From Dudresnaya verticillata (lineage: Eukaryota), in NCBI GenBank assembly GCA_977862235.1, contig OZ374563.1, forward strand, positions 744,001 through 808,000: a stretch of DNA of 64,000 bases, read 5' to 3'. Position 1 is the first letter of the stretch. Each line of letters opens with the position of its first letter. Below, one piece after another: positions 3,164-13,760 of this stretch. A model generated the notes under the pieces. That model worked only from the letters and a program-made list of their open reading frames with translations. It made no database searches and had not been told where the DNA came from. The position numbers and the translations under genes are program-made.

Positions 3164-3868
3164 TCACACGCGCTCACTGATCCTTATGGCTGCATGGCAG
3201 CCAGCCTTGATAACCTTGCTCATAGCAGAATAGAGCGGCGCTTGTTCAGCATCATGTTCAAGTCCAGTGTGTTTGTGCTCTAGTTCGTCATCTCTAAATT
3301 CGCGAAAGATGGCTCTCAGCTCTGCTTCGTTTTCCCAGTCCAGCAGCGTGCGCACTTGATCGTTGTAGTGCTCAGCGATGACTTCTTCCACAGCTACAGT
3401 ACATGCCATGGCGGCTTCCTTTCCAATAAGTGCTGTTCCTAGGCCTAGAGCATAGCCTGCAGCGTTCCAGATTGGCAGCATAGCGGTTGGGCGTACTCTG
3501 CGGTCGACAATTAGCCTGTCGAACGCATCCAGGTGTTTCTTTTCTTGGTCAGCCATTTCCTGGATGACGTTCCCCACTGGTGTCCCCCCAAAGACAGCGA
3601 GCTGGCCGGCGTAGATCTGGCGGGCACCAAGTTCTCCGGCATGATCAACTCGAATCATTTTATCGATTATCTTCTTCTTCTTGCGATCTGCGAGCAATGG
3701 GGATGATATTTTCTCATGTTGCGCAGGCCGCCCTTCCGAAGAGTCAGGTGCTGGAGGTGGCGGTTGAGAGTGGGCTGACGCGTACCTAAGCACCTTCAGA
3801 TTCGTTGATGGCCGGGTTCTGCTATACCTGTTCCCTCCCTTGAATGCAGCTTGGCGTAGCGCTTGCAT
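3164..3868 (-). CDS. COQ7: 5-demethoxyubiquinone hydroxylase (di-iron, CLK-1/COQ7), mitochondrial
   Basis: IRVDHAGELGARQIYAGQ, AAMACTVAVEEVIAEHYNDQ and FRDDELEH motifs; basic presequence. Confidence 0.96.
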   Translation of the reverse strand: MQALRQAAFKGGNRYSRTRPSTNLKVLRYASAHSQPPPPAPDSSEGRPAQHEKISSPLLADRKKKKIIDKMIRVDHAGELGARQIYAGQLAVFGGTPVGNVIQEMADQEKKHLDAFDRLIVDRRVRPTAMLPIWNAAGYALGLGTALIGKEAAMACTVAVEEVIAEHYNDQVRTLLDWENEAELRAIFREFRDDELEHKHTGLEHDAEQAPLYSAMSKVIKAGCHAAIRISERV

Positions 3869-4371: not shown

Positions 4372-6687
4372 ATGCTCCCATGTGCCACGGTGCGCACGCG
4401 TCATTTTGTGAAACTAATCAGTGCACCACAACAAAGTCAATGGAGGCTAACGCCACACCGCACGCATTCATCTCGCAATGCTTCTCCAAACAAGCAAGAC
4501 GCGAACGAAGAGATTCCTTTCTCGCGCTTGAAAGGAGTGACGATCGTGAGCGGCGTTAACGATGCTGCTCATTCTCTCCGAAATTTCATTGAGCTCGGGC
4601 CAGGGCAGCCTGTAGCATGGAGTCTACAGCCTCTATCGCCCGGATCTGCGTCAGAACCTTCTAACGCATCGTTCACGTTGAGTGCGTATGCGGGGGATGA
4701 CATTGATTTTGGAAACGGTCCGCATTTATTCTTTCGTGGCAGAGATGGACCTGAGAAACGCCAGATATGGAGCCTTCTAAAGGAATACTTCAGAGACCCA
4801 TTGTGCGCGAAAGTTTGGTTGGACTACCCATCAGCTTTCAGAATTTTGAAAGCGTGTGGTGCAGAAGTAGGAGGCTTTGTTGGGGACTTGGATAGTATGG
4901 CTCAGCTCATGGATAAGAAGGTCAAGTCCAGGAGCTTGGACTCTCTTGCGAAGGTGACCTTGAAGCGGACGGAGAGGACCGCGATTAACTCCATTTTGAG
5001 GGAGAACAAGCTGCGCGTGCGAGCAAGTCGCCCATGGAAAGATCTCCGGCAGGGAGGAGAACAGAAGCTGAATGACCTTTGGGTTGGAAAAGCTTGCGCA
5101 GACGCCCGTCTCATCTATCGCCTATTCGAAACGCTTCGTGATGAAATGCGGTTACAAGCGATTCACGGGCACAACTGTACATATGACTTTGAGACCAAAT
5201 ATTATGACGCATACAGTGTATACAACGCTTTCTTTGTGCCGCTCATTCGGCAGATCTGCAACACACAGTCCTTGGGTGTAGCGGCAAGGATCGATACCCT
5301 GGATTCTGAAGACGAAACCTTGGTAGATGAGATTAATACTAGGGAGACCAGATTTGTCGAATGGGCCTCAAGCTTCTCCCCCGAGGCAAACCTTATGAAT
5401 ATGCATTCAACTGCACAGCTACGTCAGCTACTCTTCGCACCCTGTGTGAATATCCATTCTAAGACAAGGGTTCTGCCACGTGAGCAAACCTTCCAGAACA
5501 CAAAACAAAATTCTGATCCTGAAAGCTTTTTGTTGTGTGGAAGGGGAGCAAACGCCGTCGAATTTACGGCAACGGGATGGCCATCTACGTCCGTCAAGTC
5601 GTTACGCAAGGCAGCGGGCTACCCACGACGAGCAGAGCCAACATTTGGGCAAAAGGACAAAGAATTTTGCTATGCAGTCGATGACCTACTCGTTGCGAAG
5701 GAATTGCGCAAGAACGAACCAGGACAGGTGGAAGTCAAGGATATCGTGGTAAAAGATGGTCGGGCTCGCATTGAAATTGCCATGCGGTCAGAAACAGGAC
5801 GCCTTCATGCTTATTTCGGCAACAGCGGTGTTAAAGCACGAGGCAAGAATGCCACGTTCTTGAAGTCAGGTTTGTGCGCGGGGCCTGGAAAAACCCTGAT
5901 CGTTGGAACATATAAGGACTTAGACCTTTGGGTATTGGCACAAGTCAGCGAATGTGAAGAATTGTTGCGTCGGTTAGGAGCTGAGTCAGACCCATACGAG
6001 TTGGGCGCATACGATCTCTTTAACAGCGTGCGAGACTCTGTAGAGAAACGCAAGTGCACATTCAAGTTAGTAGGGCACTCGCAAGCACTGCCCTTGGTGT
6101 CCTCCTTCCACAGGAATGAATATGATCAAGCAAGACTGCTGGACCTTGCTATAGCAAGAGGTGAATCAGAAGCAGGGGTAATGAAGAAGCTTGGAGTGGC
6201 AAGAAAGGATGCAAATCTCCTGTTAGAGAGATGGTATAGTTCAAACCCGGGCGTTGGCGCGTGGCGCAAAGAATGCCTAGAGAAGGCAAGAGCTGATGGG
6301 TTTGTGGAGACAATGCTTGGAAGACGGAGGCAGTTCATGCCGGGTAAAAGGGGCTCACGATTTGCTCAGGAGATGGCAGAGAAGGTTATTCTCCGTCATG
6401 CTGTCAGCGGGTCTGCCGGGGAGGTCATGCTGGGCGCTTTTGTGAACCTCGGGCGCCACGAAACTTTGAAAGCTCTGGGCTGGAACATCGTCTTCGTTGA
6501 CGGAGACATGGTTGTTCTGGAGGGCCCGCAATACTCAAGTGACAAGGCCGTCCCGCTTGTGTATGCGACCATGCGGGCGCCGATGGATTTTGAACTTGGC
6601 ATCGAGCTAAACGTTGAATTAATGACCGGGGAGTCGATGGAAAATGTCACCAGCAGGACAGAAGAGGAGCACTCGTCCACTGCATAG
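4372..6687 (+). CDS. Degenerate POP-type family A DNA polymerase paralog (probable pseudo-polymerase), organelle-targeted
   Basis: Intact 771-aa ORF collinear with the POP at 11340-13760 (AGDDIDFGNG, QLRQLLFAP, TATGWPSTS, SETGRL, GFVETMLGRRR, LEGP). Key exonuclease and polymerase catalytic residues are substituted. Confidence 0.85.
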   Translation: MLPCATVRTRHFVKLISAPQQSQWRLTPHRTHSSRNASPNKQDANEEIPFSRLKGVTIVSGVNDAAHSLRNFIELGPGQPVAWSLQPLSPGSASEPSNASFTLSAYAGDDIDFGNGPHLFFRGRDGPEKRQIWSLLKEYFRDPLCAKVWLDYPSAFRILKACGAEVGGFVGDLDSMAQLMDKKVKSRSLDSLAKVTLKRTERTAINSILRENKLRVRASRPWKDLRQGGEQKLNDLWVGKACADARLIYRLFETLRDEMRLQAIHGHNCTYDFETKYYDAYSVYNAFFVPLIRQICNTQSLGVAARIDTLDSEDETLVDEINTRETRFVEWASSFSPEANLMNMHSTAQLRQLLFAPCVNIHSKTRVLPREQTFQNTKQNSDPESFLLCGRGANAVEFTATGWPSTSVKSLRKAAGYPRRAEPTFGQKDKEFCYAVDDLLVAKELRKNEPGQVEVKDIVVKDGRARIEIAMRSETGRLHAYFGNSGVKARGKNATFLKSGLCAGPGKTLIVGTYKDLDLWVLAQVSECEELLRRLGAESDPYELGAYDLFNSVRDSVEKRKCTFKLVGHSQALPLVSSFHRNEYDQARLLDLAIARGESEAGVMKKLGVARKDANLLLERWYSSNPGVGAWRKECLEKARADGFVETMLGRRRQFMPGKRGSRFAQEMAEKVILRHAVSGSAGEVMLGAFVNLGRHETLKALGWNIVFVDGDMVVLEGPQYSSDKAVPLVYATMRAPMDFELGIELNVELMTGESMENVTSRTEEEHSSTA

Positions 6688-7438: not shown

Positions 7439-8485
7439 ATGCCCCTACCGAGCTTCGCAGCACCAACGCTCCTTCGCCCATCGAAACTTTGGTTCACACC
7501 TATCCAAACGACCTGTTCTCAAATGCGGCGTCCGGGCGTGATTCGCTCCTCTGCGACTGTGCAACCGGCACCAGTCGCCCACATCGAAACCGCGCAAACG
7601 TCTAGTACGCGAGCCGAGAAAGCCATCTTCCAATGCCCGTCTTGCAAAACGCCATACCCTCCCATCCCACCACAGCAGCTTTCGGACCTTCCCGCAAATT
7701 GCCCAAACTGTAACACACCGGTGCAACAGAAGTCGGGCTATGTCGACATGACACCCGAAGCTGCAGCCACCACATCTGTCCTGCGCAACTGGTTCCGGCA
7801 GCCTCAAAAACAGGCACTCTTCCAGCTTCCGACTGTCTCGTTCGCGTACGAGCGCGGTTGGCGTAACAACTTCAAACGTGCTGGCTTTCCCGGTATCGAC
7901 CGCGAGTTCGCACTGTTTTTGGACCATGTGTTGCCGGCTGAGTCTGTTTTGGACATGTCCTGCGGCTCGGGACTAATGTCGCGCCGTCTAGCGTCGTCCG
8001 GCCACTTTTCCCGAGTTATCGCAGCGGACTACTCTGACGCAATGCTGCGGGAGACAGTTTCACGTGCCAAGTCTGATACTACTGTACCTGAGTTTGATGT
8101 CGTCCGAGCGGATGTTGCAGCACTGCCGTTTACGGATGGGGCTTTTGATGCCGTTCATGCTGGTGCTGCACTGCACTGTTGGCCTAACGTCCAGGACGGG
8201 CTCGGAGAAGTGCGCCGGGTGCTCAGGCCTGGTGGAAAGTTCTTCGCCACCACATTTATGAGGCTGGCATACGTGCCTAATCGGGAGGCGTTGGTGGCAA
8301 GACCGGCGCTGTATCGTGCGGTAAAGCGGGCTGAGGAGCTCTTTCCTGGGGAAGTGCCGTACAGATTCTTTGAAAAGGATGAGCTCGAGTTTCTATTTCG
8401 GGCTGCCGGATTTGCTTCAGTTGAAGTCCAAGTGCTCAAGGGTTGTGCTATTATTCGATGTGAGGCACCAGCGGAATGGGCTTGA
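7439..8485 (+). CDS. Plastid-targeted SAM-dependent methyltransferase (Methyltransf_11) with N-terminal zinc ribbon
   Basis: Transit-like N-terminus; CPSC...CPNC; VSFAYERGWR; VLDMSCGSG motif I; DAVHAGAALHCWP; RVLRPGG. Confidence 0.9.
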   Translation: MPLPSFAAPTLLRPSKLWFTPIQTTCSQMRRPGVIRSSATVQPAPVAHIETAQTSSTRAEKAIFQCPSCKTPYPPIPPQQLSDLPANCPNCNTPVQQKSGYVDMTPEAAATTSVLRNWFRQPQKQALFQLPTVSFAYERGWRNNFKRAGFPGIDREFALFLDHVLPAESVLDMSCGSGLMSRRLASSGHFSRVIAADYSDAMLRETVSRAKSDTTVPEFDVVRADVAALPFTDGAFDAVHAGAALHCWPNVQDGLGEVRRVLRPGGKFFATTFMRLAYVPNREALVARPALYRAVKRAEELFPGEVPYRFFEKDELEFLFRAAGFASVEVQVLKGCAIIRCEAPAEWA

Positions 8486-9897: not shown

Positions 9898-10542
9898 ATG
9901 CAGGCGTTCGCACTTCCAGTTCCACGCACTTTCCCAAGGGGCAAAATGCAAGACACCAAGTGCCGACACTACTCTGCGAGAAGGCGTCTCGCGATAGGGC
10001 CTGTTACCAGTTCCTTGCAAGAAGATAGGCAAAAGGTCGTGAAGACTTTGGAGAGAGATTTGCCCATGCAGTACGAGGCACCCCTCTCACTTGACTGGAG
10101 CATTTTCGACGACAAAGTTACGTTTGATGATCCTAATACAACGCTCAACGGGAAGCTCATGTACCAGGTTTGTTCGCGCATTGCAAAGTCGGGAATTTAG
10201 ACAGGGCAGCCTTCCACTTGAGCCAATAAGTTCTAACCGCCTCGTCTTTGGAGGTTGAGTCCATTGTAGGGTATGCTCTTAACAATAGGGCTTTTCATCG
10301 TCCCTTTCCTCTTCAGGAGCGACGCTGTTTTCGAACTGCGTGAATGCGGCTTAACGGAGGATGGCGAGAAGGTGCGGACAAGATTTTGGTCGAGGGGTAC
10401 CACGAGATGGGGCAGTCAGGTCCTCATTTCAGGCGTCGACTTCTTCTGGTTTAGAGCCAACTCGAGCAATATCATTCGGCATGAGTCCACCTGGGATCAA
10501 ACTCTTGAGGAGGTTGTACGCTCGTTTAGAGGTGATACCTAA
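9898..10542 (+). CDS. DUF2358/NTF2-like plastid protein, two exons (9898-10167, 10270-10542)
   Basis: MQAF transit start and DWSIFDDKVTFDDP motif. A 102-nt phase-0 GT..AG intron (10168-10269) with a TTCTAAC branch site joins the two ORFs in frame. Confidence 0.8.
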
Positions 10543-11339: not shown

Positions 11340-13760
11340 ATGCTGGCATCGCATCTTGCCAGTCGTGTTCGCGCGGCGCGCCGCTACCTATCTCGTTTGG
11401 CACAGACGAGTCCTAATCCTGCCCGCCAAGTCGAAGACCAAGCCGAGCCATGGCCCAAGCCTCCTGTGGTGGACGGACCTGTGCGCGCCTCTACTGCTCA
11501 TCTCGTTCCGACTACGGTTGTTCAAGACAAACGCACCGCTGCGCAAGTAGTCGCAAAGCTCATGAGCCTTCCCTCTGAGACGCTTGTGGCGTGGGATACT
11601 GAGACTACCGATGTAAATCCTGCGAAAGAATCCCCCGTTGGGAAGGGCAGAGTGATATGTGCTACTGCCTTTGCCGGCGACAATGTCGACTTCGGGAATG
11701 GCTCAAGGTTGTTCGTGGATTGCTTAGATGGAGAGGGTGGCCGTGGTATGCTTGATGTCTTCAAAGGCTATTTCGAGAACCAGAGCTGCAAGAAAGTGTG
11801 GCATAATTACGCGTTTGATCGTCACGTGTTGGCCAACCATGGCATTGTTACCAGAGGTTTCGGCGGCGATTCAATGCACATGGCTCGGTTGTTAGACACG
11901 GCAAGGCAGAGGTATTCGCTAGAGGCGCTATGCAGATCCTTCCTGGATGACAGTGCTCTTGAGAAGCGTAGCATGATGGAGCGATTTGGAAGGCCAGAGG
12001 TATTGAAGGACGGACGCCTAGGACAGAAGGTGGTGATACCAACAACAATTGAACTCCAACGTGCTCAAGAGTTTCGTGACGAGTGGATAGAGTATGCAGC
12101 TTCAGACGCAGAACTCACGTATCGTCTTTGTAATACCCTGAGGACAAGGCTTGAACATGAGCGTATTGTTGGTGAGAACTGCATGCCTGAAATTGCTGAA
12201 AGGTTTGGGAGTATGTACGAATTGTACAAAAGTCTTTTGCTACCGTTTGGCGAGGTGTTGACGGATATTGAACGCACCGGGTTCAAGGTCGATGTTAATT
12301 GGCTACAGAAAGCCCAAATGCAAGCGGATGGTGATCGGCTGGAGCTGGAAGCAAAGTTTAGGGAATGGGCAGAGACAAGATCCCCAGATGCGCGGTATAT
12401 GAATGTGAATTCTGATGCCCAAAAGAAGTTCCTCTTTTTCGCACCGTACAAGAACAAGAAGACAAATGAGAGCCTTCCTGCTGCAAAGACTTTCTGTATT
12501 GAACCTGCGGAGTTCCTACCTGAATCGCTAGTCGCAGAAATAGCAAGCGAACAAGAGGTCGCTGAGAAGGAAGCAGAGAGGAAGAATGGCAAGCGCCGCA
12601 AGCTGAAGAAACACATTGAGCTTCACGGCTTGCGAAAACCTGTTGTGGAAACGACTGTCGGTGGCTGGCCAAGTGTGTCGGGGGCTACATTGCAGAAGCT
12701 CGCTGGGAAGCCAAGGGCAGACCCACCTCAATACGGTGATGGAAGCGACCCTGCAATGTGTGTTGCGGTAGATGAATTGATATCTGCGTCTCGAATATCT
12801 ACATTGATCTCGACTTTCATCGTTCCATTGCAGCAGTGGCCAGGAAGCGATGGGCGCATCCATGCATCTCTAAATCTCAATACGGAGACGGGACGGCTCT
12901 CATCTCGGCGTCCAAATCTTCAGAACCAACCGGCCTTGGACAAGGACCGTTATAGGGTGCGCCAAGCGTTTGTTCCTGAACAAGGTAATAGTCTTATTGT
13001 GGCTGACTATGGGCAGTTGGAGCTCAGGCTATTGGCGCACATTACTAACTGCAAGTCGATGATTGAAGCATTTGAGGCTGGAGGGGACTTTCATTCCAGA
13101 ACTGCGTTAACAATGTTTGATGAAGTGGCACTAGCCGTTGATCGGGGCGATTGCGTGCTTGAGAGGGAAGATGGATGGGAGGCAGCCAGCAGCCCTCCGC
13201 TTTTGAAGGATATGTTTGGTTCGCAAAGGCGAAAAGCAAAGACTCTCAATTTTTCCATTGCCTACGGAAAGACAGTACGGGGTCTTTCAAGGGACTGGAA
13301 TGTGTCTCTTAAGGAGGCGAAAGACACATTAGACTTGTGGTACAAGGAAAGGCAAGAAGTTTTGCATTGGCAGGAGAATTGCAAGCAGTTCTTGCACGAA
13401 GAGCATTACGTTGAAACAATCCTGGGGAGAAGAAGACATCTCCCTGATATTGCCAAGAAGGACTTCAAGAGCAGAGGTCACGCGGAGCGAGCGGCGATTA
13501 ATGCACCGTTACAAGGATCTGCTGCAGACCTTGTGATGGCGGCCATGGTCAAACTTCATCGGAACCGTGTGCTGTCCATGCTGGGATGGAAGATTATTTT
13601 GCAGGTGCATGATGAGATAATATTGGAAGGCCCGGATGAGACTGCAGAGGTAGCGCTTCCGATTGTGATCGAACAAATGAAGAACCCTGTCGACGTCCCG
13701 CTGCGCGTTGATCTGACGGTGGATGCGAAGTGTGCCAAATCATGGTACGAAGCGAAGTGA
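11340..13760 (+). CDS. POP: Plant/protist organellar DNA polymerase (POP, family A, 3'-5' exonuclease + polymerase)
   Basis: ExoI AWDTET, ExoII HNYAFD, ExoIII YAASD, TETGRLSSRRPNLQNQP, motif A ADYGQLELR, motif B RRKAKTLNFSIAYG and motif C QVHDE. First in-frame ATG is at 11340, followed by a presequence. Confidence 0.96.
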   Translation: MLASHLASRVRAARRYLSRLAQTSPNPARQVEDQAEPWPKPPVVDGPVRASTAHLVPTTVVQDKRTAAQVVAKLMSLPSETLVAWDTETTDVNPAKESPVGKGRVICATAFAGDNVDFGNGSRLFVDCLDGEGGRGMLDVFKGYFENQSCKKVWHNYAFDRHVLANHGIVTRGFGGDSMHMARLLDTARQRYSLEALCRSFLDDSALEKRSMMERFGRPEVLKDGRLGQKVVIPTTIELQRAQEFRDEWIEYAASDAELTYRLCNTLRTRLEHERIVGENCMPEIAERFGSMYELYKSLLLPFGEVLTDIERTGFKVDVNWLQKAQMQADGDRLELEAKFREWAETRSPDARYMNVNSDAQKKFLFFAPYKNKKTNESLPAAKTFCIEPAEFLPESLVAEIASEQEVAEKEAERKNGKRRKLKKHIELHGLRKPVVETTVGGWPSVSGATLQKLAGKPRADPPQYGDGSDPAMCVAVDELISASRISTLISTFIVPLQQWPGSDGRIHASLNLNTETGRLSSRRPNLQNQPALDKDRYRVRQAFVPEQGNSLIVADYGQLELRLLAHITNCKSMIEAFEAGGDFHSRTALTMFDEVALAVDRGDCVLEREDGWEAASSPPLLKDMFGSQRRKAKTLNFSIAYGKTVRGLSRDWNVSLKEAKDTLDLWYKERQEVLHWQENCKQFLHEEHYVETILGRRRHLPDIAKKDFKSRGHAERAAINAPLQGSAADLVMAAMVKLHRNRVLSMLGWKIILQVHDEIILEGPDETAEVALPIVIEQMKNPVDVPLRVDLTVDAKCAKSWYEAK

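Follow-up and report, generated by a model that had tools for sequence, protein, structure and literature searches.

The organelle genomes of plants, algae and many protists are replicated by the DNA polymerase POP. In the red alga Dudresnaya verticillata the gene of this enzyme is preceded on the same strand by a second POP-like reading frame, in which the catalytic residues are replaced. This raises the question whether the second frame is a duplicate in decay or a protein which was retained for something other than catalysis, and in the latter case what it might do. The stretch of DNA analysed, called the window in the following, comprises 64,000 nucleotides (contig OZ374563.1, positions 744,001 to 808,000).

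The Gene and Its Neighbourhood

The pseudo-POP gene (4372..6687, plus strand; protein P0001) is a single exon for 771 amino acids with a predicted full Klenow-type fold and replaced exonuclease and polymerase catalytic residues, and in the reading of the open frames of the window it proved to be free of stop codons and frameshifts. The active-type POP gene (11340..13760, plus strand; protein P0002), which is its presumed partner, encodes 806 amino acids with all exonuclease and polymerase motifs intact. The two proteins align over 750 columns with 28% identity (E 6e-90), as had been claimed in the original prediction, which described an uninterrupted frame of 771 residues aligning end to end with a POP on the same strand. 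At the DNA level no match between the two genes was found by blastn at E<1, so the duplication must be old. Judged by its sequence, P0001 is a full-length POP paralog and not a product of local decay. It is recognized by the Pfam DNA_pol_A model with a weak score of 78 bits, as compared to 282 bits for POP, and no Pfam match was obtained for its exonuclease domain.

The earlier description of the gene as lying next to the active one holds for the strand and for the distance of 4.65 kb upstream, but a methyltransferase gene (7439-8485) and a DUF2358-like gene (9898-10542, plus strand) intervene. The latter appears to consist of two open frames, 9898-10200 and 10273-10542, with a short intron between them. 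On the other side, 503 bases upstream of the pseudo-POP gene, the gene of the mitochondrial ubiquinone enzyme COQ7 (3164-3868, minus strand) is arranged head to head with it, and a shared promoter of the two is possible. The plus strand at 1152-2993 encodes a protein of 613 amino acids with HEAT/PBS-lyase-like repeats and an N-terminus of plastid type.

A Family of Inactivated Paralogs

A protein search with P0001 yielded 107 matches, the top seven of which were full-length, had 33-42% identity and ranked above every active POP. From an exhaustive search of 50% representatives the best 150 of 3,512 matches were used. In total 223 proteins were aligned and their catalytic columns read, and 33 of them carried a residue other than aspartate at motif A or motif C. 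These comprised 27 proteins of a new family, the two proteins P0300 and P0318 treated below, and four ordinary POPs which were truncated, misaligned or changed at a single residue. After two near-copies of P0008 had been dropped, 25 family members were counted. The search for orthologs with the same losses thus added 24 to P0001, none of them with the motif A aspartate, the motif B tyrosine or the ExoI aspartate or glutamate.

The POP phylogeny which had been proposed was calculated with a mixture model on 90 rows. All 25 dead members form a single clade (SH-aLRT 100) with long branches, which is nested in the florideophyte POPs (SH-aLRT 99 and 98), and the best matches outside the family are POPs as well. 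By this phylogeny the family descends from within the POP clade. When each member was left out in turn, the family profile scored better than the florideophyte POP profile in 25 of 25 cases. That the dead clade is an artefact of long-branch attraction is disfavoured by these leave-one-out profiles and by shared derived residues. A bacterial Pol I type origin, as in the Rhodothermales-related rgPolA, was also considered and rejected on the basis of the family profile, on which POPs reach about 330 bits and bacterial Pol I 119 bits, the trees being built without an rgPolA sequence.

The family includes Agarophyton chilense CAN8067450.1 (P0193) and Gracilariopsis chorda PXF42331.1, which belongs to the 90% cluster of P0251 and is annotated as 'DNA polymerase I B, chloroplastic/mitochondrial'. 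This dead copy of G. chorda scores 159 bits to P0001 versus 128 bits to the POP of its own species. In the tree the POP of the window falls together with the POPs of Gracilariopsis chorda, Gracilaria domingensis and Agarophyton chilense (59-61% identity), which would place its source among the florideophyte red algae beyond the branch of the Gracilariales. A metagenome scan yielded 14 loci, all of which resemble the active POP more closely than the dead copy, and a search of the ESM Atlas returned generic family A clusters only.

Loss of the Catalytic Residues

All six motif changes which had been quoted for P0001 in comparison with POP were found to be correct in the alignment. In the dead 3'-5' exonuclease domain (4522..5166, plus strand, residues about 51-265) the aspartate and glutamate of ExoI and the aspartate of ExoII are replaced. 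These losses extend to the family columns, where the ExoI aspartate is found in 0/24, the ExoI glutamate in 0/25, the ExoII aspartate in 0/24 and the ExoIII tyrosine in 0/22 members; the ExoIII aspartate occurs in 16/24. The position of the catalytic aspartate of motif A is occupied by Thr513 in P0001 (5908..5910, plus strand), and throughout the family the aspartate is present in 0/25 and replaced by lysine or arginine in 9/25, as compared to its presence in 46/46 and 39/39 active POPs. From motif B the arginine and the lysine are each left in five of the 25, the phenylalanine in one and the tyrosine in none, and Asn721 and Gln725 are likewise found in 0/25. Motif C has its histidine in two, its aspartate in six and its glutamate in two of the 25 members. 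Among 45-46 florideophyte POPs, 43-46 retain the residue at each of these catalytic positions. The original prediction had P0001 keep the motif C aspartate, which is true for this protein but not for the family, and with only six carriers this aspartate is not under selection.

The chemistry of family A polymerases requires both aspartates, the one of motif A and the one of motif C. As far as can be read from the sequences, the polymerase residues of motifs A, B and C together with the ExoI and ExoII carboxylates which characterize POP are lost from all or most members of the P0001 family. It is very unlikely by the same reading that the 'DNA polymerase I B' of G. chorda is a polymerase, and its annotation should be corrected.

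Some enzymatic activity, as a weak polymerase, as a nuclease or as a dRP lyase, might nevertheless have persisted by means of acidic residues which have moved, such as Asp710 and Asp518, or by means of a lysine. Asp710 is located in the motif C hairpin (6499..6507, plus strand), where it precedes the catalytic position Asp712 by two residues, and is aspartate or glutamate in 20/25 members; at position 518 an acidic residue occurs in 14/25. A precedent is archaeal PolB2, which was predicted to be inactive (PMC2527604) and later shown to be active, but it had kept its metal-binding aspartate (PMC8764526), which motif A of the dead family has in no member. Asp710, the sole new acidic residue close to the site, has no conserved acidic partner, so that moved catalysis is unlikely. 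Furthermore, the family has lost the O-helix residues and does not conserve any pair of acidic residues. The dRP-lyase lysine of AtPolIB was sought in the family and is not kept, its column being variable. Taken with these losses a residual enzyme is very improbable.

Other POPs with damaged active sites were encountered as well. P0300 (JGI, 823 aa) and P0318 (Logan, 847 aa) are POP-like with intact exonuclease motifs and a dead polymerase site. Both branch outside the red-algal dead clade, so that they represent separate inactivations, and they may be exonuclease-only POPs. In P0259 (KAJ1459934.1, Pelagophyceae sp. CCMP2097), a POP of divergent sequence, the exonuclease motifs are degenerate and motifs B and C are altered; its branch is very long and its placement unsure. 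POP may thus have been inactivated several times, in P0300, P0318 and P0259 besides the red-algal family.

Evidence for Selection

Neutral drift of the window gene was simulated with substitutions only, down to 65% identity, which is half the distance to the nearest ortholog. A stop-free frame resulted in 0 of 300 runs, with a mean of 15 stops and a minimum of 6. The real family consists of 25 open frames which share 22-43% identity with P0001; 11 of the columns are invariant and 28 nearly so. The dead copy does evolve faster than POP, by a median factor of 3.3 in 13 pairs including the window, as a decaying duplicate, a pseudogene in progress, would. Against decay, however, stand the 25 open frames across deep divergence, the invariant columns, the kept fold and the at least six stops in every neutral run, which leave this explanation with hardly any probability. 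The central claim of the original prediction, a selected pseudo-enzyme instead of a decaying duplicate, is therefore upheld by 25 intact orthologs with the same losses in one clade, by a divergence which tracks that of the linked POP and by the outcome of the simulation. P0001 is very probably a selected, non-enzymatic pseudo-polymerase, a dead paralog which appears to be retained under selection in the manner of the prozymes.

Linkage, Age and Distribution

Twelve of 32 dead-copy contigs are exactly equal in size to one of 46 florideophyte POP contigs, with a mean of 0.05 expected by chance. The size-matched pairs include the genomes of G. chorda and A. chilense and contigs down to 7,256 bases, implying that the linkage of dead copy and POP is conserved, as read from equal contig sizes. 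Over 13 pairs, that of the window among them, the distances among dead copies correlate with those among POPs (Mantel r 0.71, p 1e-5), which reflects shared species history and not co-evolution. All 12 POP partners fall into one clade of 31 POP rows which includes the Gracilariales (subclass Rhodymeniophycidae). Among POP contigs of at least 7 kb a matched dead copy was found for 12 of 22 inside this clade versus 0 of 8 outside (Fisher p 0.01); the other 10 of the 22 have no matched dead copy. Rhodosorus (Stylonematophyceae) branches outside in both trees. When 35 rows out of the 90 were subjected to AU tests, a duplication at the base of the 31-row clade was not rejected (p 0.23), nor was a placement beneath the whole set of florideophyte POPs (p 0.115). 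From this distribution many red seaweeds appear to keep an old full-length dead POP twin near their POP gene.

Predicted Fold and Conserved Regions

A structure prediction of P0001 alone had been suggested and was carried out with AlphaFold2. With an alignment of 110 sequences, 85 rows of which were active POPs, a model with a pLDDT of 90.3 and a pTM of 0.87 was obtained, in which disorder is confined to residues 1-44 and the last few; an alignment of eight sequences gave a poor model with a pLDDT of 47. The top Foldseek matches of the model are Pol I large fragments with a TMt of about 0.8, and POP insertion 1 is aligned in P0001. The model is that of a Klenow-type exonuclease and polymerase fold with POP insertions.

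Retention of the individual regions was counted over those columns which are conserved in 90% or more of the florideophyte POPs. Of these, the dead members retain 17/35 in the thumb, 18/59 in the exonuclease domain, 8/24 in the C-terminal palm, 16/81 in the fingers, 4/20 in motif A and 1/34 in the palm segment before motif A. The best-kept region (5392..5610, plus strand, residues 341-413) consists of two thumb motifs, QLRQLLFAP..N and GWPS.S..L, on either side of POP insertion 1, with F355, P357 and L411 present in 25/25 members. These motifs match the Klenow thumb segments flanking POP insertion 1, which contact the backbone of the primer strand in Pol I structures; the palm segment erased here contacts the minor groove of the primer-template in those structures. 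In a homology model of POP, insertions 1 and 2 are placed against double-stranded DNA (PMC7699545). The template-side motif of Gly650 and Arg651 is also kept (24/25 and 23/25). At Leu350 (5419-5421) within the thumb motif the dead family has leucine versus lysine in 46/46 florideophyte POPs and in Rhodosorus, and residues 625-626 (6244-6249) are mostly His-Pro versus Arg-Gln in POPs. At both sites the dead family resembles bacterial Pol I more than the parent POP does.

The family also has conserved residues of its own. Within 5971..6144 (plus strand) these are Arg534 (24/25; alanine in POP) and the O-helix residue Asp591 (23/25; asparagine in POP); one member lacks both and another only Asp591. 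Altogether L531, R534, D591, H625, E684 and D710 are newly conserved and cluster in sequence around the old fingers/palm junction, where they may fix the fingers in one position. As constraints unrelated to the chemistry of POP they would also suit a scaffold repurposed away from DNA replication, for instance in organellar RNA, translation or membrane complexes, but the best-kept region is the DNA-contacting thumb, and such a role is improbable.

The same features can be read as those of a stand-alone organellar DNA-binding protein, a nucleoid, DNA-end or replication-intermediate factor which uses the scaffold and the thumb without contact to POP. The thumb and the Gly650-Arg651 motif are kept, the new conserved residues lie in the fingers and palm of the pseudo-enzyme itself, and both its fast evolution and the lack of a new patch on POP fit independence. 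Most palm DNA contacts are lost, however, no DNA-binding domain has been added, and the mature family proteins have a pI of 6.0-9.4 and are not uniformly basic, so that a stand-alone factor is rather unlikely. A negative regulator or decoy would contend with POP for the ends of DNA molecules or for partners in the replisome (Twinkle, SSB), and organellar DNA copy number or recombination would thereby be limited. Such a decoy would have to retain the whole surface and fold of POP with both chemistries dead, as is seen here, but loss of the palm segment for primer/template binding would weaken its competition at primer ends, and we regard this explanation as distinctly unlikely.

Proposed Function

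The destination of the protein is suggested by its N-terminus. Codons 1-44 (4372..4503, plus strand) encode a disordered, arginine-rich, acid-free and presequence-like segment (pLDDT <50), with five arginines or lysines and no aspartate or glutamate in the first 30 residues. The N-termini of the family are arginine-rich, and in 17 of 19 members examined the first 30 residues contain at most one aspartate or glutamate. A cleavage-like motif was found in 8/22 N-termini, not including P0001. The composition and the disorder would fit a presequence for organelle targeting, mitochondrial import being likelier.

As the leading but still tentative reading, to which a probability of roughly 0.4 is assigned, P0001 is a non-catalytic mitochondrial partner of POP, by analogy with dead paralogs which act on their active relatives. 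POP would have been duplicated locally early in the florideophyte radiation that includes the Gracilariales, and the arginine-rich N-terminus would direct the dead copy into mitochondria. Having inherited the self-association surface of POP, it would form a POP/pseudo-POP heterodimer. Its thumb, as a second one beside that of POP, might grip a DNA duplex or another DNA end without engaging the primer terminus, and the dead partner might in this way tether, activate or restrain POP in replication or end-joining repair. Arabidopsis PolIB is a dimer by SEC-MALS in the presence or absence of DNA (PMC6451138), so a POP duplicate would begin with the ability to heterodimerise. Dead-paralog partners are known from other families, for example DHSp of the trypanosomatid deoxyhypusine synthase (PMC3663545). 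The linkage to POP and the good retention of the thumb, as compared to the erased palm segment before motif A, likewise speak for a partner.

Several observations speak against a partner of POP. According to a 2014 review POPs are processive as single subunits, with 1,300 nt for the Cyanidioschyzon POP, so that a helper is not required (PMC4166229). No clear new conserved interface patch was found on the active POP after the duplication, the 18 florideophyte-specific columns being scattered and several of them common to the dead copy. An about 3.3 times faster evolution than that of POP is fast for an obligate subunit, and the linkage may be left over from local duplication. With the palm DNA contacts gone and the pI not uniformly basic DNA binding may be weak, the insertion-1 lysine which AtPolIB needs for end-joining is not conserved in the family, and the cleavage-like motif is missing from most N-termini and from P0001.

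That the mitochondrial DNA of most florideophytes is replicated or repaired by a two-subunit replicase of POP and its own dead twin is, if anything, a shade more doubtful than the partner role as such. If true, an accessory subunit of a POP would be known for the first time, as would a family A pseudo-polymerase which acts on the enzyme it is derived from, and the dual-targeted POP might thereby possess a mitochondrion-specific regulator. The dead twin may also account for a separate control of a single dual-targeted polymerase in mitochondria. A full-length dead twin across a large seaweed radiation is in any case a concrete candidate for a POP accessory protein.

Comparison with Known Systems

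No description of a dead POP was found in the literature covered, which lies largely outside the subscription journals, and the earlier statement that no POP pseudo-polymerase has been described stands within this scope. The accession PXF42331 did not appear in any paper searched. In the Gracilariaceae transcriptome papers searched 'DNA polymerase I' occurs solely as a library reagent, and the supplements searched contained neither the accession nor the name. POP duplicates of land plants, chlorarachniophytes, dinoflagellates and euglenids are treated as polymerases in the sections consulted of a 2019 survey, which reports a single POP gene for rhodophytes (PMC6523293). Euglenid POPs without exonuclease domain have been noted, with no discussion of catalysis in the part of the text seen (PMC7238167). 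No POP accessory protein was known to the 2014 review (PMC4166229), and the question is left open in PMC7699545. The second family A polymerase of red algae and glaucophytes, rgPolA, is of bacterial Pol I type, of Rhodothermales origin and plastid-located, whereas P0001 is derived from POP; that main text, as far as available, contains nothing on inactive, catalytic or motif aspects, and the names and accessions sought were absent from its supplement as searched (PMC10877234).

With POP, its direct parent, P0001 shares the length, the domain order, the POP-type thumb insertion and the presequence-like N-terminus, and the dead clade nests among florideophyte POPs; unlike POP, the dead clade as a whole has lost the exonuclease and polymerase catalytic residues. 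The animal mitochondrial PolgB is not a paralog of its polymerase and is derived from a tRNA synthetase. It resembles the proposed partner in that, without catalysis of its own, it serves an organellar family A replicase as a processivity subunit (PMC4166229). In family B the C-terminal module of Pol epsilon and archaeal PolB2 are polymerase-exonuclease scaffolds with degenerate motifs which were proposed to be structural beside an active enzyme, so that a dead POP is not a wholly new kind of protein. These modules are nuclear or archaeal, however, that of Pol epsilon is fused, and PolB2 kept its key aspartate and is active (PMC8764526).

The trypanosomatid prozymes differ from P0001 in being metabolic enzymes with a proven complex, whereas P0001 is a paralog of a DNA polymerase and its complex is a proposed one. 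Another dead paralog of the trypanosomatids is reportedly the AdoMetDC prozyme. In common with prozyme-type paralogs such as DHSp, P0001 has a lineage-specific duplication, a lost catalysis and retention under selection (PMC3663545). The P0001 family thus belongs to POP by descent though not by its catalytic residues, and by its likely way of working it would be a prozyme-type partner.
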